64,000 bases of DNA, from the NCBI GenBank assembly GCA_965205975.1, contig OZ242195.1:3862656-3926655 (forward strand), in the 5' to 3' direction. This document shows positions 20,964 through 60,661 of this stretch, piece by piece. A program made the position numbers and the translations under genes. Positions within the stretch are counted from its first letter, which is position 1. Each line of letters starts with the position of its first letter. Under the pieces are notes generated by a model. It was given only the letters and a program-made list of their open reading frames with translations, searched no databases and was not told the origin of the DNA. Source of the stretch: Candidatus Latescibacterota bacterium (GTDB lineage Bacteria; Latescibacterota; UBA2968).

Positions 20964-21478
20964 CCATCCACCTCCTCATCCCGAATGGAAAGCAAAGACC
21001 GACACGCCAGCCCCAGCCCCTGTAGCAAAAGCAGAACAAAACCAAGGGGAATAGCCGCCTTCAGCACCCACCGCGCGGGCAGACCCCCCGGATCGGGTGA
21101 CGTCTCCCCAATGTGGAATGCACTAACCACAAAATACTGCGAACTCACAATCACAATAATGCAAAACGGAATCAAAAACAGAACGCTGCCAATCAGATTC
21201 ACCCACGCCTTCTTACGAGCGGAAAACCGGCTATAGAAAACATCCACGCGCACGTGTTGATCGTGCTTGAGCGAATACGCAGCACCAAGCAAAAAAATCA
21301 GCGCGAACAAATGCCATTCCAATTCCTGAACAGCCACCAGGCTATTCTTCAGCAAATAGCGGGTAAAAACATCGTAACAAACCACCGCCACCAGCACAGC
21401 GGTAAGCCACGCAATCGCCCTGCCAACGCGCTCATTTAAACCATCGACAAATCGGATATATGCTCTTAAAACCTGCAA
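20960..21478 (-). CDS. dctQ: TRAP transporter small permease
   Basis: 4-TM protein overlapping the dctM start by 4 nt. The ATG at 21577 in the track lies inside an upstream terminator hairpin, so I propose an internal TTG (L34) preceded by an AGGAG RBS. The start is uncertain. Confidence 0.7.
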   Translation of the reverse strand: MQVLRAYIRFVDGLNERVGRAIAWLTAVLVAVVCYDVFTRYLLKNSLVAVQELEWHLFALIFLLGAAYSLKHDQHVRVDVFYSRFSARKKAWVNLIGSVLFLIPFCIIVIVSSQYFVVSAFHIGETSPDPGGLPARWVLKAAIPLGFVLLLLQGLGLACRSLLSIRDEEVDG

Positions 21479-21560
21479 AATGCGCTCCTGAAAAAATGGT
21501 TCAAAGAATATAAATAAATTCGCATAGTAGAAGAGAAAAAACGAATACAAAACCAACAGC

Positions 21561-21601
21561 AAAAAGTCCGGATACACGATATGGTATCCGGACTTTTTTT
21601 T
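21561..21601. terminator. Rho-independent terminator (bidirectional: A-run, perfect 10-bp stem, T-run)
   Basis: AAAAAGTCCGGATAC-ACGATATG-GTATCCGGACTTTTTTTT. Confidence 0.85.
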
Positions 21602-21623
21602 AAAGTTCAGGCTTTGGGTATTC

Positions 21624-21989
21624 TCAAGTGTGGTATTTTCGGTAAAATTCTTTTACTATTTTGGATGTGCGTTTAGATTTACATAGACCTGCATGCATCC
21701 TATATAATAATTCATTGGATATAGTTTCTTGTTGCTTTCCCTGTCTTTTAATATATTCGACATTGGATTCTTTGATTATGCTCGCTTTTCCGTATAGAAC
21801 GACAGATTTTTTTCTTATGAAGGGATGTTCACCAGGTTGAATAATACAAGTCTCATCTGAATTTTTACGCCATGATGTGATATTCACTATTATTGCTTGT
21901 GGTGGGTCGCCCAAATAATCTGTTAAAAATATATGTAAATGATAGCCCCCACCATCTTCAAACAAATAACACTCGCCAGCTAATGACAT
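21624..21989 (-). CDS. uncharacterised small protein encoded immediately downstream of a Panacea-domain gene; candidate toxin
   Basis: 121 aa: MSLAGECYLFEDGGGYHLHIFLTDYLG... Its N-terminus is homologous to ORF 59733..59966 (MGLAGTCILAQDEIGIRKHLLIFVTDLV). AT-rich. Confidence 0.5.
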   Translation of the reverse strand: MSLAGECYLFEDGGGYHLHIFLTDYLGDPPQAIIVNITSWRKNSDETCIIQPGEHPFIRKKSVVLYGKASIIKESNVEYIKRQGKQQETISNELLYRMHAGLCKSKRTSKIVKEFYRKYHT

Positions 21990-21991
21990 AT

Positions 21992-22570
21992 TTATCCAAT
22001 TAACTTATCGTAAAATAGCATGACACGCATTTCGTCTTTTATTGCCATTAAATCTTCTCCGTCCCATCCTGTAACATTGAAAAGTGTAGTCCAGGATATT
22101 GGTGTAGAAGTCTCGCCAGATTCCTCAAATTCAGGTAGAGAATGCGTATATTCTTTTAACTCTTGAAAACTCATATTTCCGTACTTTTTAAATACATCAT
22201 TCATTAATTCAATTTCTATCTCGGATAATTCCCCATCATCTACATCAAATGTTTTCAACCTCACAATATGATCTGTTTGAGAATATGAAAAGTACTTTGA
22301 CCAATATTCTCCTTTCTTCTTTTCGCATGCAAGATCATAGGTATTACTCAACACAGGACCAAAAGGCATATTGAATGGCCTGTCAAATGTTACAAGGTCG
22401 CCAAATTTTTCTAAGCCACGCCGATCAATTAGATACATCAGTTTAATGAGCTTGTACAAATCAATTTTGCCACCATTGCGTTTTGCCAACAACGTAGCGA
22501 TTTGTACGGTTTTTAACTCCTTGAAAGCGGGAACATCACTGTCGGAAACAAAAACCTTATCCTTGACCAT
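21992..22570 (-). CDS. Panacea-domain (DUF4065, SocA/PanA-like antitoxin) protein
   Basis: DLYKLIKLMYLIDRRGLEKFGDLVTFDRPFNMPFGPVLSNTYDL is the Panacea core. The ATG is at M18, with an AAGGAGG RBS. The paralog is at 59957..60661. Confidence 0.7.
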   Translation of the reverse strand: MVKDKVFVSDSDVPAFKELKTVQIATLLAKRNGGKIDLYKLIKLMYLIDRRGLEKFGDLVTFDRPFNMPFGPVLSNTYDLACEKKKGEYWSKYFSYSQTDHIVRLKTFDVDDGELSEIEIELMNDVFKKYGNMSFQELKEYTHSLPEFEESGETSTPISWTTLFNVTGWDGEDLMAIKDEMRVMLFYDKLIG

Positions 22571-22845
22571 CTTGACCTCCTTACACAGGGGAATATAAGG
22601 GGAAGGTTTGAGGTTAGACACCTTATCCTATATTAAATATAGAGAACCGATACTCCTGCGTCAAATTTTAAGGAGAATCCCTATATCCCAAACTACGCTA
22701 TTTATTGAGTTTTAACTCCTCACCTACTTCAATCTTCGCGTCAATTTTTATTCTCGTCACGGCAGCAAAACATGATCCTTGATATGGAATCGTTTTTTGT
22801 GTAAATTTAATTTGTCATTTTAGATTTACACAAAAAAACGCGCTT

Positions 22846-24000
22846 ATGAATTACCGTCCTCGACAAATTGAACCCATCCTGTCCGACTATCTCAATGCAT
22901 TCCCTGTGGTCGGCATTACAGGACCTCGGCAATCTGGAAAATCCACGCTCCTCCAGCAGGTACTGCGCGATGCTTACACCTACGTCACCTTTGACGACAT
23001 AAGACAACTGGCATTATTTGAAGACGACCCCGAAAAATTTATGCAAATGTATCACCACCGCGTTATTTTTGACGAAGTTCAAAAAGCCCCTGCACTTTTC
23101 AACCACATCAAGCTCGCCGTTGATCGAGATCGCGATACCTATGGCAAATTTGTACTCACCGGATCCAGCCAATTCACGCTCATGCAAAATGTAGCGGACA
23201 GTCTGGCAGGGCGCATTGGTTTATTGTCACTTCTCCCCTTTGATCATCGAGAATTGCCCAAAGCACTTTGTGCAACAGCGATATGGCGCGGCTGTTATCC
23301 CGAACTGGTCACGCGCCATTATCGCAATGCCGACGATTGGTATGCCTCCTATATCGAAACCTACCTCGCACGCGATGTGCGAGACGTGGCACAAATTGGC
23401 AATCTGCGCGATTTTCGGAACTTGATCCAGTTACTCGCTGCAAATACGGCCCAGATACTCAACATGTCTCGCCTCGCCAGTGACCTCGGCGTAACAATGC
23501 CCACAATCAAACGGTGGATTTCCATATTAGAAATGTCCTATGTCATCTTTCTCTTGCCCCCTTATTTTCGGAACTTCGGCAAACGGGTTATCAAACGCCC
23601 CAAAATATATTTTTACGACACGGGCCTCGTATCGGCTCTCACGGGCATTCGGACTGAAGAAATGTATGACCGCGGACCCATGGCTGGTACACTCTTTGAA
23701 AATTATATCCTATCTCAAATCCTCAAACACCACAAACACACCAATCGACGTTGTGAATTTTATTTTTACCGAACCAGTCATGGCGTAGAAATCGATCTCG
23801 TTATCGACACGGGACAAACCCGTCATTTTGTCGAAATAAAAAAAACCGCGACCTTTAGACCTCGCCTGATAAAAACACTCCATACACTCGCTTCTCAAGC
23901 CGACACAGCGACACTGATCTATCAGGGAGAATCACTGCCCGATTACAGCGGTATTCGCATTTGCAACTGGTCGAATTACCTCACCCCAAAAAAGGAGTAA
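22846..24000 (+). CDS. AAA-family ATPase with a DUF4143 C-terminal domain
   Basis: Walker A GITGPRQSGKSTLL, Walker B VIFDEVQ, and the DUF4143 region (FYRTSHGVEIDLVID). Confidence 0.85.
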   Translation: MNYRPRQIEPILSDYLNAFPVVGITGPRQSGKSTLLQQVLRDAYTYVTFDDIRQLALFEDDPEKFMQMYHHRVIFDEVQKAPALFNHIKLAVDRDRDTYGKFVLTGSSQFTLMQNVADSLAGRIGLLSLLPFDHRELPKALCATAIWRGCYPELVTRHYRNADDWYASYIETYLARDVRDVAQIGNLRDFRNLIQLLAANTAQILNMSRLASDLGVTMPTIKRWISILEMSYVIFLLPPYFRNFGKRVIKRPKIYFYDTGLVSALTGIRTEEMYDRGPMAGTLFENYILSQILKHHKHTNRRCEFYFYRTSHGVEIDLVIDTGQTRHFVEIKKTATFRPRLIKTLHTLASQADTATLIYQGESLPDYSGIRICNWSNYLTPKKE

Positions 24001-50528: not shown

Positions 50529-51100
50529 CCTATCGACCTCCTAAAAAAAAGTCAGGATCGAGTAAATGATTGTTTACGAACGTTTTGATTCTACTGCGAA
50601 ACTGCATCATCTCGCGCTGTCCATCGCGCTGTTTAAGACCGGACCCCAGAACAGGGTGAGAGCCGCGACCTTTGCGACACAGCGGAGAAGTTGATCGGGT
50701 TTCAAACCCGACCCTACGAAAATCCAAATTTATATCCCTCCCTTCAACAGACTTGTTTTCATTTCTTTTAATTCCTTTCAATACAACAAGTTACGAACAA
50801 CTATGAATTAACCATTTTATTCAAGTACCTCCTTCCAAAAACAGCCTAACACACACCAATGCAACATCCTCACAATGGCGTTAAGGAGTAATGCGTTAGG
50901 AAAAATCAACACCCTTTCTGTTTTGTTTGATGTTTGATTCATGGGAACTGCTCCACCTTAAATATATGACGGGCTAATTATATGCAATCAAAATGGTAGT
51001 GTCAAGCGTTTTTTCTTCGGTAATGATATGATAATAAAAAAGAAACGCAAAGGCAATCAGAAACGGTGTACAACTGGTCGATTCCCAGACCAGTTCATCA

Positions 51101-51350
51101 GGATGTACAGGATTAAAGGATGTACAGGATGAAAGGCAAAAGCAAAAGGCAAAAAGCATCCGCAGATGACGCAGATGACGCGGATGAAAAGGCGAAAGGC
51201 AAAGGCAACCACAGATGAACACCGATGAACACGGATGAAAAGGCGAAAGGCAGAGGCGAATCCGCAGATGACGCAGATGACACAGATAAAAGGCAAAGGC
51301 AAAAGCAAACCTTCTGGATCGCGGGTAACACCACCCCGCGATGACACCTT
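51101..51350. repeat. array of short direct repeats plus a B-type palindromic repeat
   Basis: CAGGATGTACAGGAT..., CCGCAGATGACGCAGATGACGCGGATGAAAAGGCGAAAGGCAAAGGCAACCACAGATGAACACCGATGAACACGGATGAAAAGGCGAAAGGC..., CTTCTGGATCGCGGGTAACACCACCCCGCGATGAC. Confidence 0.85.
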
Positions 51351-51407
51351 AGAGGCAAAGGCAAAAGCAAAATCTTCTCCAGTGGTAGCGCATCCGAGAC
51401 ACCTTTT

Positions 51408-51671
51408 TTATCCGAGTTTGACAAGAATGAGCGTTCCGAGTGTGATCAACGTTGTAAGCTGCGTGCTGATCAAAATACCGATAAGCCAGCGAAAATCTGT
51501 TCTGGCGGTTTGGCGTGTTTCGGCAAAGCCATGCTCAACCTTTTGCTCAAGGCTGGTCAAGCGCGTCTCAAGGCTGGTCAAGCGCGTGGCGATTTGCTCA
51601 GTAATGCCTTCAACCCGCGATAGGCGGGCGTCAAACTCGGACAGCTTGTTTTCAACGGTTGGAAGCTGCAT
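51408..51671 (-). CDS. small coiled-coil protein with a C-terminal TM helix (paralog of 57490..57774)
   Basis: MQLPTVENKLSEFDARLSRVEGITEQIATRLTSLETRLTSLEQ... followed by TM LIGILISTQLTTLITLGTLILV. It aligns with the MQLPSAESRMADIDTRMSRIEGIVDQIVQRLTSMDARMTSIEQ paralog. Confidence 0.55.
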   Translation of the reverse strand: MQLPTVENKLSEFDARLSRVEGITEQIATRLTSLETRLTSLEQKVEHGFAETRQTARTDFRWLIGILISTQLTTLITLGTLILVKLG

Positions 51672-51742
51672 TGTAAAAACTCCAGTGAAAGGAATATACG
51701 GTTTAAGGAATATAAGGAATATGGGGGAAGAACAAAAGTAAA

Positions 51743-53383
51743 TTACCTGCTTTCAGCCGCGAAGCGGATACCATTATTGGGTGGGGGTTCTGGCGCATTG
51801 GGATTGACTTGCTTCATAATCTGATCCAAATTCCCGACAACTATCGGATTGTACGCCTCCCATTGACGGATCGGCGCATCATTCTCGTCTCGGCGCCAGA
51901 TCTGGACATCGCCGAATTGCTTCTCCACTGTATAGCCGGGAATAGTGAGATTGGTATTCTCCGACACAATATGGCTGACCGAAGCCGCAGTTATCTCCAG
52001 ACCCTTGTTTATCGCACGCCCTGAATACGCATCGTAAAACGGTATCTCCCGGTGCAAATAGTAGTAGCCAGGAAGGTTGTAATAAGGTCGGTCGGCCTGC
52101 CACACCCCCAGAACACCGGGCACGCGGGCGAGATAGCGATACGCGGCAAAAATCGGATCCTGATCGCGGATGAACCCCACCTTCCCCGTCTCTTTGGAAA
52201 AAGCGCGATAAATCTGAACCTGTGAAGGCAGCGCATTCAGAACCCCGCCTATTGAAATTGCCGCGAACAAACCCCCCACCAATCCCCAAACGCGCACATG
52301 CCCACCAAATCGCGCCACCACATCTGCACCGAGCAAAAGCCACAGCGGAACAACCGCAAAAACGAACCGGTACTCCTTGTGCGCCTGAACAGAATGAATG
52401 AGCAACACCAGAGCGACCATCGCCAGAACAAACCCATAACGCCGCACATCGCGCAATGCGACAACCACACACAGCGCACCCAACCCCACACTCGCCAGCA
52501 AAAGCCACCACAAAAACTGGTATCCCGGGGACTCGCCAGCGCGCCCCTGATCAAAGATGAGATTAAAACGGATATTCGCAACATAGGAATGAAATAAACC
52601 GCCATCCCACGTCATCGCATCGAACACCCCCACCGCCAGCAAAAACGCACCCGCAGCAACCAATAGCTGAACCTTCTTCTCCGTCCTCAAAAAGAACACA
52701 CCCAAAAGCAACAATGCAATCGGCGCGTACTGCACTCGTATCGCCGCCGCCAGCACCGCCACAAGTGCCATCAACCAGACCGTCCCCATCCTGTGTACCG
52801 ACGACCGCGCACACATCACCAGCAACGCCATCAACAGGGCCGTAGCCACAAACTCCGTCATCGGCTTGTGGGCAAACCCCACCAACTCATACCAGAAAGC
52901 ACCAGCCAATAATGCAACCCGCGCCGAAGTCTCCCCAAAATGCCGCCGCGCAAAAAAATACATCCCCACTGGAATCAACAGAGAAATTGCACAAAACATC
53001 AGCTTGACACCGCCCACATACCAGAACGGCTCATCGAGTCCCACCAGATCAAACACCTTCAACACCCCCGCAACCATGCCCGGCACCAGCCATGCACGCG
53101 CCCCGTAAAAAAACTCCCAATACGTAACCCCATTCCCAAAAACCAGACGATGCGCCGGCTCCAAATACTGCATAATTTCATCCGGGTGCAAAACAAAATC
53201 GCCACACAGCGCAATCGCCGCACGCACCGCGAATGCCAAAACAAGCACTGGCAACAAAAACTTCCACGGACGCTCATCGGACACCTGCAAATGCAACACG
53301 CGATCCACCAAAGGGACCAACGACCTCTGCCGATCCCCGCGCGGATCGCGGCGCGTCCTCCTTGTCTTCCTTCTGTTTGCCAT
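51743..53383 (-). CDS. GT-C-fold membrane glycosyltransferase, ALG9/PIG-B-like mannosyltransferase family (GT22-like)
   Basis: Polytopic. The LHPDEIMQYLEPAHRLVFGNGVTYWEF motif is typical of the Glyco_transf_22 / mannosyltransferase family. The polybasic N-terminus MANRRKTRRTRR is shared with the gene at 54288..55844. Confidence 0.6.
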   Translation of the reverse strand: MANRRKTRRTRRDPRGDRQRSLVPLVDRVLHLQVSDERPWKFLLPVLVLAFAVRAAIALCGDFVLHPDEIMQYLEPAHRLVFGNGVTYWEFFYGARAWLVPGMVAGVLKVFDLVGLDEPFWYVGGVKLMFCAISLLIPVGMYFFARRHFGETSARVALLAGAFWYELVGFAHKPMTEFVATALLMALLVMCARSSVHRMGTVWLMALVAVLAAAIRVQYAPIALLLLGVFFLRTEKKVQLLVAAGAFLLAVGVFDAMTWDGGLFHSYVANIRFNLIFDQGRAGESPGYQFLWWLLLASVGLGALCVVVALRDVRRYGFVLAMVALVLLIHSVQAHKEYRFVFAVVPLWLLLGADVVARFGGHVRVWGLVGGLFAAISIGGVLNALPSQVQIYRAFSKETGKVGFIRDQDPIFAAYRYLARVPGVLGVWQADRPYYNLPGYYYLHREIPFYDAYSGRAINKGLEITAASVSHIVSENTNLTIPGYTVEKQFGDVQIWRRDENDAPIRQWEAYNPIVVGNLDQIMKQVNPNAPEPPPNNGIRFAAESR

Positions 53384-57874: not shown

Positions 57875-58840
57875 TCACCCATCCAACGCTTGCTCAAATG
57901 CCTCAAGATTGGACACCTGGATCGCCGCACGGTGCAACTGCTTGAGACGTTGCAAATCATCAATCGCGGCAATGCGTTTGGATAGCGGGTGTGCTTCACG
58001 CAGGTCAAATCGAATCTCCAACACGTCGAGAATATCTTCAATCGCGCGTTGCCTGCCCCCTTGCTCAATACCTTGCTCAATACCTTGCTCAATACCCTGC
58101 TCAATACCTTGCTCAATACCTTGCTCAATACCCTGCTCAATACCTTGCTCAATACCTAATTGCTTGATGTATTGTGCAGACAATGATTCGCGCATAATGG
58201 CATCCATAAGACCCTCCTGTAATAGAATACGATTGATCAGTGTCGGATCATACGCTAACCCACTCAATATCATCAACCTGCCTAAAAAGTCAACCTTTAT
58301 TGATTCATCCACCGGCAGCGCATTCGTCGCGTCAACACAGTGACGCAGCCACGCCTCTGAATCTATGCCAGACGGACGCTTCATCAACGGCACGAACGGA
58401 AACAAGCCCGAAGGTCCACCATCAAGAATATCCTGTCCCTCTATTTCACTCAGCCGAATCACGCTATATTTGATCACAGCAAGATGGCCGGACATTTTAT
58501 GAATAAAGTGCCCCGGATCGCGCCGACCTGCATTGCGTCGCAAGTAGATCACACTGGAATAAATCGGCAGGTTGTGCTGCTCTATCGCACGTATCATATA
58601 GCCCGCCATGCGCAGCGGCATAGACGGATCGTCAGTGGTTTGAAACTCCGTATGGATCAACGCCTCCTCACCTGCGATAAGGACGCGGATAAGGCTGTCC
58701 ATGTGTCGTGTTTCAACGGTGTTTTGCTCTGTGTCGAGGATGTCGAGGACTTCTACATCGTCCTGTCCGAATGTGAGGCGGATGAAGTCTTTGGGGTAGG
58801 TTTGGATGAGGTCTTTAGAGATGGTGTCATATTCGGCCAT
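57875..58840 (-). CDS. Rpn-family recombination-promoting nuclease / putative transposase (YhgA-like), with an internal (GIEQ)x8 repeat
   Basis: 321 aa. N-terminal PD-(D/E)XK-like region (DSLIRVLIAGEEALIHTEFQ), a C-terminal DUF4351-like region, and a 12-bp in-frame tandem repeat at ~58040-58140. Confidence 0.7.
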   Translation of the reverse strand: MAEYDTISKDLIQTYPKDFIRLTFGQDDVEVLDILDTEQNTVETRHMDSLIRVLIAGEEALIHTEFQTTDDPSMPLRMAGYMIRAIEQHNLPIYSSVIYLRRNAGRRDPGHFIHKMSGHLAVIKYSVIRLSEIEGQDILDGGPSGLFPFVPLMKRPSGIDSEAWLRHCVDATNALPVDESIKVDFLGRLMILSGLAYDPTLINRILLQEGLMDAIMRESLSAQYIKQLGIEQGIEQGIEQGIEQGIEQGIEQGIEQGIEQGGRQRAIEDILDVLEIRFDLREAHPLSKRIAAIDDLQRLKQLHRAAIQVSNLEAFEQALDG

Positions 58841-59732: not shown

Positions 59733-59966
59733 TTAGATGAGGGAATTAGATACAATATCGAATATAAAAGTCTCGAACCTCAAATCTCGTATATTTAGAT
59801 TTTTGCAACCCTGCAATAACACGAGCCAACACATATTGACGGCAATTGCAAAATACTCTGTCTCGTTACTCCGAACAACAGGAACAAGGTCAGTCACAAA
59901 AATAAGCAGATGTTTACGGATTCCAATTTCATCTTGAGCAAGAATACAGGTGCCCGCTAATCCCAT
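59733..59966 (-). CDS. small ORF downstream of the second Panacea-domain gene; N-terminally homologous to 21624..21989 (candidate toxin, possibly truncated)
   Basis: MGLAGTCILAQDEIGIRKHLLIFVTDLV aligns with MSLAGECYLFEDGGGYHLHIFLTDYL. 77 aa. It overlaps the Panacea gene stop by 10 nt. Confidence 0.4.
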   Translation of the reverse strand: MGLAGTCILAQDEIGIRKHLLIFVTDLVPVVRSNETEYFAIAVNMCWLVLLQGCKNLNIRDLRFETFIFDIVSNSLI

Positions 59967-60661
59967 GCATGTCCAATCATTTTTTCAAAATCCGCTCTGA
60001 TAGCCAAATCTTCTCGTATATCCAATATATCATCCTCATCCCATCCAACAGCACGCAACCAATTATTCCACTCAATAGGTCGAGCAGTGTTACCCGTATC
60101 TTCATACTCTGCCAATTTGTGCGTCTGTTGAGATATTTCATGAAAAGACATATGTCCAACTTCTTCTATCACTTTGTTGATATATTCCATATTCGCTTCA
60201 GACAACGCACCTGTACCAACTTCAACATCTCGCAACTTTACAAGATGTTTGGTATCAAGCCCCCAAAATACCTTATTCCAATACCTACCATTGCCTTCTT
60301 TTATCAATCTATATGTACAGCTCAATAACGGTCCAAACTTCATATTACAAGGACGATCAAAAGTGATGGGATAACCGCGGTCCTCCAGAGACTTTCGATC
60401 TATCAAATAGATTATCTTGAGCAATTTGCCCATATCCATCTTATTGTTAAATTTCTTTACCAATAAGGCAGCAACCTGCACTGTTTTTCTCTCATCAAAA
60501 TCAGGAAGTTTCAAGTCGTCAACGTGAGAGGACCGTAATGTTGCCAGACTCGTTGGACAAGATTCGAGGTAACACCAGTGTACAGGGTTCCGTTGCGTTT
60601 GCTCGCCATGATATATACGCAGGGTTGGTTCATTCCTTAAATATTCTGGATCGCGGCTCAA
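59957..60661 (-). CDS. Panacea-domain (DUF4065, PanA-like antitoxin) protein, paralog 2
   Basis: MGKLLKIIYLIDRKSLEDRGYPITFDRPCNMKFGPLLSCTYRL aligns along its length with 21992..22570. AT-rich islet. The start is uncertain. Confidence 0.65.
   Translation of the reverse strand: MSRDPEYLRNEPTLRIYHGEQTQRNPVHWCYLESCPTSLATLRSSHVDDLKLPDFDERKTVQVAALLVKKFNNKMDMGKLLKIIYLIDRKSLEDRGYPITFDRPCNMKFGPLLSCTYRLIKEGNGRYWNKVFWGLDTKHLVKLRDVEVGTGALSEANMEYINKVIEEVGHMSFHEISQQTHKLAEYEDTGNTARPIEWNNWLRAVGWDEDDILDIREDLAIRADFEKMIGHAWD

Follow-up and report, generated by a model that had tools for sequence, protein, structure and literature searches.

The DNA analysed here, referred to as the window, is a stretch of 64,000 nucleotides (nt) of a Candidatus Latescibacterota genome (contig OZ242195.1), and all positions are window positions unless another locus is named. 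On its minus strand lies a compact pair of genes: panA, encoding a protein with a Panacea (DUF4065) domain, and panT, an open reading frame (ORF) for a small protein of 121 amino acids (aa). An earlier note on the same DNA had described this Panacea gene and, beginning 2 nt past its stop codon, the small ORF; domain assignment, coordinates and spacing all hold (Table 1). We suggest that this locus (copy 1, ~21561-22664, minus strand) is most likely a complete two-gene type II PanAT toxin-antitoxin (TA) operon with the antitoxin gene first, and that its small protein can be placed by homology as a distant member of the previously described PanT cluster T6. This work computed the domain content and the anatomy of the operon, how well the pairing is conserved, the fold and the family to which the toxin belongs, as well as purifying selection and the decay of a second copy to a pseudogene.

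Upstream of the panA start, an in-frame GTG at 22621 provides an alternative start that would give 209 aa; the 192-aa form is the gene call used in other assemblies, and an extra N-terminal domain is not recognisable in PanA of copy 1. A promoter-like site precedes panA and a hairpin with a T run follows panT, and copy 1 therefore resembles a self-contained bicistronic operon. The promoter-like site is the sole minus-strand match in the region in a consensus scan, and should be taken as suggestive only, because its match count is not above that of shuffled sequence. The module has a guanine-plus-cytosine (GC) content of 0.36 and the second copy one of 0.40, compared with 0.518 in the whole window and 0.51-0.58 in flanking genes, which bears out the earlier description of both copies as AT-rich islets. 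Comparison of copy 1 with its orthologues reveals purifying selection on both genes (ratio of nonsynonymous to synonymous substitution rates, dN/dS, of 0.12-0.14 for panA and 0.14 for panT, at a dS of ~1.3-1.9).

Table 1. Features of the two Panacea-associated modules and of the adjoining ATPase gene (window positions)
Feature	Position	Strand	Description
panA copy 1	21992-22570	-	Panacea/DUF4065 antitoxin gene, ATG start, 192 aa; Pfam SocA_Panacea (PF13274) E 2.4e-18, above gathering score
panT copy 1	21624-21989	-	121-aa ORF, predicted MazF/PemK-like fold toxin, distant member of PanT cluster T6 by homology
Promoter-like site	22636-22664	-	TTGACG, 17-nt spacer, TATATT; 10/12 consensus matches; upstream of panA copy 1
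Intrinsic-terminator-like hairpin	21561-21598	-	15-bp stem, then T run; 26 nt past panT stop codon
AAA_14 + DUF4143 ATPase gene	22846-24000	+	Adjoins module 1; conserved in relatives with or without PanAT
panA copy 2	ORF 59957-60661; homology to locus L105 59957-60538	-	PF13274 E 1.4e-18, above gathering score; intact ORF
panT copy 2, N-terminal remnant	59883-59966	-	MGLAGTCILAQDEIGIRKHLLIFVTD...; within 77-aa ORF 59733-59966; family profile positions 5-29
panT copy 2, C-terminal remnant	59755-59847; whole piece in this frame 59749-59865	-	...VLARVIAGLQKSKYTRFEVRDFYIRY; different frame; hmmsearch of six-frame translation, profile positions 94-124, E 4.5e-5

Family size and pairing with Panacea genes

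When all four proteins of the two modules were scanned, none matched an NCBIfam or PADLOC model, and the matches of the 121-aa protein in Pfam were at chance level alone (P2 GpR and MciZ, E > 0.04). A word-indexed homologue search with this protein alone returned four near-identical syntenic proteins only, each encoded between the TRAP transporter genes dctQM and a sulfatase gene, with a Panacea gene directly upstream. Taken by itself, that search would make the protein a lineage-restricted orphan, a view overturned by an exhaustive HMMER search with an alignment of the four near relatives, which retrieved 2,267 cluster representatives (clusters at 50% identity) at E≤1e-3 and 357 at E≤1e-10. 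Conservation outside its own genome, set beforehand as a test by the earlier note, is evident from these counts. The representatives are nearly all single-domain proteins of about 120-135 aa, the database names of family members are all "hypothetical protein", and the window protein also matches the phage family phrog_19071 (E 4.4e-16).

A genome scan was performed with a subset of a 146-sequence family alignment, namely the members with a GDHPFI.H motif, and is biased to motif-carrying members because the query sequences share it. It yielded 168 confirmed loci spanning Acidobacteriota, Planctomycetota, Gemmatimonadota, Chloroflexota, Verrucomicrobiota, Photorhabdus, Citrobacter and others, and 80 of the 168 were kept for neighbourhood analysis. 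A same-strand ORF of ~180-210 aa ends a few bases from the small gene in 78 of these 80 loci, and this upstream ORF matches PF13274 in 72 of the 78; the genes flanking the pair vary from locus to locus. The pair is also found in the Klebsiella temperate phage ST13-OXA48phi12.5, where a gene annotated as DUF4065-domain-containing protein lies 3 bases upstream of the panT homologue and both proteins match PHROG families. These counts go well past what chance would give; with the phage-borne pair, the association with Panacea is thus near obligatory, and the co-occurrence for which the earlier note had proposed a survey is amply found.

Two rearranged forms were seen among the homologues. In the 107-aa protein P0004, a deletion across the gene junction has naturally joined the C-terminal part of PanA in frame to that of PanT. 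At locus L004 (472-1042, on a low-coverage contig) an intact panT is preceded by a panA broken into ORFs of 118 and 63 aa, which could reflect either an error in sequencing or a defective antitoxin gene.

Fold and conserved residues

The AlphaFold2 model of the 121-aa PanT (predicted local distance difference test score, pLDDT, of 95.8) has the SH3-like barrel toxin fold of MazF, PemK, Kid and CcdB, and MazF and Kid ranked above CcdB in both fold searches. Conserved positions of the PanT family are H17 (invariant), H55, L18, D45, Y66, G101 and S105, as well as a V-N-x-T-S strand and a G-[DE]-H-P-F motif; the window protein keeps every one of the near-invariant residues H17, L18, D45, H55, Y66, G101 and S105. 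H17 and H55, both invariant in the family, are candidates for catalysis, as are D45 and T38/S39. Weak matches to the Pfam PemK_toxin model (PF02452) occur in 3 of the 146 aligned family members (best E 3.2e-4). The partner PanA proteins of this family have a conserved C-terminal stretch in common, H-x-LPEW-x-DP-x-GS-x-x-PI, lying partly outside the Pfam model; as a speculation, this may be a contact region.

Relation to PanT cluster T6

A survey of Panacea neighbourhoods by Kurata et al. (2022; PNAS 119:e2102212119, PMC8832971) defined 88 toxin clusters, with T5, T6 and T25 being MazF-like by HHpred; in its Dataset S1, the HHpred annotation of T6 is EndoA/PemK/MazF RNases. One of the homologues found here, at locus L075 in Photorhabdus namnaonensis PB45.5, is WP_065389115.1 by exact look-up. 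Dataset S1 lists it as the PanT of a cluster T6 pair, with PanA WP_065389114.1, antitoxin first and a 1-nt overlap, and the layout of locus L075 agrees exactly with the entry. The window PanT aligns with WP_065389115.1 at 32% identity over 119 aa (BLASTP E 2e-16; hhalign probability 99.8%). T6 also holds the validated Pseudomonas moraviensis pair (PanA WP_083354365.1, PanT WP_083201923.1). This PanT was toxic in Escherichia coli, was neutralised by its cognate PanA and was pulled down in a stable complex with it; it specifically inhibited protein synthesis, affecting 35S-Met incorporation and not thymidine incorporation. Neutralisation was independent of ClpXP and Lon for the PanAs assayed (PMC8832971). 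We place the window PanT, on homology, as a distant member of cluster T6, with its link to the validated toxin resting on the clustering of those authors. Two distinct MazF-like PanAT pairs, one of T5 and the other of T6, are present in P. namnaonensis PB45.5 according to locus L075 and Dataset S1.

The partner had earlier been described as belonging to no recognised family and as a candidate new toxin family or defence effector. The former is true in so far as Pfam, NCBIfam and PADLOC hold no model for it, but its MazF/PemK/CcdB fold and its homology to a T6 member supply the missing kinship. The idea of a conserved, toxin-like partner stands on the pairing, and that of a new family does not; the fold search, proposed earlier as a check, and the homology to T6 came out against it. 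It was reasonable to take a Panacea partner for a toxin.

The second copy

The second copy (59733-60661) is a decayed relative, whose antitoxin gene has lost its native 5' end. The PanA proteins of the two copies are 42% identical over 201 aa (E 2e-57), and both match the DUF4065 profile (Table 1), as had been expected of them; alignment of the small ORFs is limited to the first 28 residues (50% identity, E 9e-6). The remains of copy-2 panT lie in different frames, and ~60 codons are deleted between them, including the conserved D45 and GxHPF (H55) motifs. Copy-2 panT is a pseudogene, with an internal deletion of the presumed catalytic middle and a frameshifted C-terminus. The diverged two-gene copy reported earlier at this position is supported by the alignments of the Panacea proteins and of the small-ORF N-termini, but it is not an intact pair.

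The panA ORF of copy 2 stays open to a TTG at 60661, with a further possible TTG start at 60514; exact look-ups of two start variants of the protein found neither in the protein collection. The panA of locus L105, from a relative, has 94% nucleotide identity to it from the LRSSHVDD codons (60538) onward, and is followed by a 29-aa panT stub, shorter than that of copy 2, and then by two further antitoxin-like genes. Upstream of 60538, a GIY-YIG nuclease gene fragment replaces the native panA ATG start and upstream region. This 40-codon fragment (MNQPCVYIMASKRNGTLYTGVTSNLVQRVWQH...; 60511-60633, minus strand) overlaps the 5' end of the copy-2 panA ORF in another frame. Homology to the L105 orthologue starts just downstream, at 60538, and the native panA start was thus perhaps lost in a rearrangement. 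The dN/dS of panA copy 2 is 0.30, from 35 substitutions only. A six-frame profile search found no further panA or panT copies in the window.

Insertion sites and neighbouring genes

The close relatives of the window genome are named Gemmatimonadota or Latescibacterota metagenome-assembled genomes (MAGs). Among those with DctM of at least 90% identity, the site of copy 1, bounded by dctQ on one side and by the DUF4143 ATPase or sulfatase gene on the other, differs in content: it can be empty, or hold an 88-aa ORF, a PIN_3 gene, PanAT, or PanAT together with a UPF0175/DUF3368 pair. The PanAT cassette is therefore a strain-variable hot-spot insertion, with the ATPase gene outside it. We considered the DUF4143/AAA_14 ATPase as a third component of the module and rejected it, as relatives without PanAT also carry it and locus L007, which has PanAT, does not; in locus L091 its gene is split into two ORFs. 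Between this divergent ATPase gene and the panA promoter region lies an 18-nt inverted repeat (22793-22837; 94% complementary, 9-nt loop, A and T runs at its flanks), a possible bidirectional terminator or operator.

The second copy is flanked by the genes for a formylglycine-generating enzyme and a bifunctional nuclease, at a site that is empty in some relatives. Both hot spots in relatives also hold other TA-type genes (L001/L002, 6527-7259; L092, 4729-5163; L105, 3320-3986), namely a UPF0175 + DUF3368 pair, a PIN_3 gene, and UPF0175-like and PhdYeFM antitoxin genes, which indicates recurrent TA turnover at the same intergenic sites. A 321-aa ORF (57875-58840, minus strand) has a faint Transposase_31/YhgA-like match, and 8.2 tandem copies of a 12-bp unit (58059-58157) encode (GIEQ)n near its C-terminus.

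GC skew is strongly negative in 63 of the 64 1-kb bins of the window (about -0.01 to -0.39), the sole and slightly positive bin being 51001-52000 (+0.079), and 59 bins of the 64 have a positive AT skew, with exceptions no lower than -0.041. The cumulative GC skew drops almost monotonically to -14, an unusually strong bias. It persists over plus-strand genes such as the sulfatase gene, and so looks replication-linked rather than coding-linked.

Discussion

We consider it likely that copy 1 is a working type II PanAT module, in which PanT would be a MazF-fold endoribonuclease that arrests translation when free and PanA would inhibit it by direct binding. On homology with the tested T6 member, free PanT would act as an endoribonuclease and shut down translation. 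PanA, a stand-alone Panacea protein, would bind PanT directly in a stable complex and neutralise it, as the P. moraviensis pair does. We read the module as an AT-rich accessory cassette that was acquired horizontally and sits at an intergenic hot spot varying between strains; temperate phages carry the same cassette. PanT toxicity, RNase activity, direct neutralisation and the catalytic residues are points that we infer from these relatives.

Several observations weigh against such an assignment. The window protein has no match to the PemK_toxin model PF02452, and the PanT family profile has zero matches among PDB sequences at E≤10; it was the comparison of folds that brought out the kinship of the family with MazF. 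Full-length hhalign alignments with single MazF sequences of Bacillus subtilis and E. coli are weak (E 0.026-0.068). In that with B. subtilis MazF (E 0.026) the invariant H17 stands opposite the catalytic R25 and T38 opposite T48, a placement which agrees with the strand order of the model; in that with E. coli MazF the residue pairing is offset by one. That H17 and T38 sit at the catalytic R25 and T48 positions of MazF is thus only a hint. Where MazF has its canonical catalytic Arg, PanT appears to have a His, and its chemistry or target may therefore be another. PanT also has its fold in common with CcdB, which poisons gyrase and does not cut RNA. Moreover, 8 of the 25 PanT candidates assayed by Kurata et al. 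were non-toxic in E. coli, and the window PanT is linked to the validated P. moraviensis toxin indirectly, via a shared FlaGs cluster and one Photorhabdus member.

The module might serve mainly to defend against phages through abortive infection, the Panacea domain sensing the infection and then setting the toxin free. Such a role, which would be compatible with the mechanism proposed above, we regard as possible though doubtful. A sensory role for Panacea has been hypothesised (Ernits et al. 2023), temperate phages carry the same module, and it occupies strain-variable hot spots beside other TA genes (PIN_3, UPF0175/DUF3368, PhdYeFM). However, none of the four module proteins matches a PADLOC protein model, the trigger for toxin release is not known, and the conserved unit comes without adjacent defence genes, the DUF4143 ATPase occurring also in relatives without PanAT. 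It would be unlikely that the PanT family forms a mechanistically distinct MazF-fold branch relying on His-His-Asp (H17, H55, D45) instead of Arg/Thr, with another substrate or chemistry possible, and that the orphan PanA genes beside gutted toxins, seen at two hot spots and in more than one strain, act as anti-addiction antitoxins. Quite unlikely is that copy 1 is a conserved and non-toxic remnant, for example a domesticated or inert pair: many predicted PanTs are non-toxic in E. coli (PMC8832971) and copy 2 shows module decay in the same lineage, but both genes of copy 1 are intact and under purifying selection (dN/dS ~0.14), and all near-invariant PanT residues are present in the window protein.

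The shared barrel fold leaves a small place for a toxin that poisons DNA gyrase like CcdB instead of cutting RNA like MazF. We hold this very improbable: MazF and Kid outrank CcdB in both fold searches, the T6 member blocks 35S-Met and not thymidine incorporation (PMC8832971), and T6 is annotated as EndoA/PemK/MazF RNases in Dataset S1. The ranking of the folds and the metabolic-labelling data for T6 make the gyrase mode the less likely one. There is next to no room for the notion that the small ORF is the first of a new family of toxins or defence effectors without known relatives. It draws on the missing Pfam, NCBIfam and PADLOC models and on the uniform naming as hypothetical proteins, but has to face the MazF/CcdB fold, the homology to WP_065389115.1, listed under T6 in Dataset S1, and a T6 representative already characterised in 2022 (Kurata et al., PMC8832971). 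It is similarly hard to credit that PanA is a proteolytic adaptor handing the toxin to ClpXP and not a stoichiometric binding inhibitor. SocA, the founding Panacea protein, does work in this manner (PMC8832971), but ClpXP and Lon were dispensable for the assayed PanAs and a T6 PanA:PanT complex was pulled down (PMC8832971), and the present toxin is a MazF-fold protein, not SocB. A type III system with an RNA antitoxin was excluded, as positions 21300-23000 contain no tandem repeats and there is no Rfam match above the gathering score.

The module that we propose as a working PanAT pair is similar to described T6 systems in its antitoxin-first two-gene operon with abutting or overlapping genes, in a PanA without an extra N-terminal domain, and in a toxin of ~120-135 aa with a MazF/PemK-like fold and no CDD or Pfam match. 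It differs in coming from an uncultured non-proteobacterial lineage, whereas the T6 entries examined in Dataset S1 are all from Proteobacteria, and in a PanT only ~30% identical to the proteobacterial members. Unlike MazEF and Kid-Kis (PemIK), whose antitoxins MazE and Kis are of the AbrB or ribbon-helix-helix (RHH) type, it has a Panacea-domain antitoxin. Its toxin is missed by the Pfam PemK_toxin model, has extra C-terminal helices and shows the PanT invariants H17, D45 and H55, with a His at the Arg25 position of B. subtilis MazF in what is a weak alignment. From CcdAB it is set apart by unrelated antitoxin families and by the target, since CcdB acts on gyrase and the T6 representative on translation. 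A Panacea-domain antitoxin is also found in SocAB of Caulobacter crescentus (PanT cluster T10), but its toxin SocB, which blocks the replication clamp, is unrelated, and SocA is a ClpXP adaptor, unlike the other PanAs assayed (PMC8832971). In the type III systems ToxIN, AbiQ and CptIN, by contrast, a tandem-repeat RNA antitoxin would stand where this module has a protein antitoxin gene.

Conclusions

The finding holds little biological surprise, as it adds a distant non-proteobacterial member to a validated class of Panacea TA systems. It does expose an annotation gap: a huge, multi-phylum, phage-borne and Panacea-paired family still goes by the name "hypothetical protein" and escapes Pfam, NCBIfam and PADLOC, and a profile from the present alignment would allow T6-type toxins to be named. 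The His-for-Arg difference at the presumed active site of PanT is the other mildly useful outcome. Finally, an intact and a decayed copy of the module at strain-variable hot spots provide a tidy example of TA turnover.
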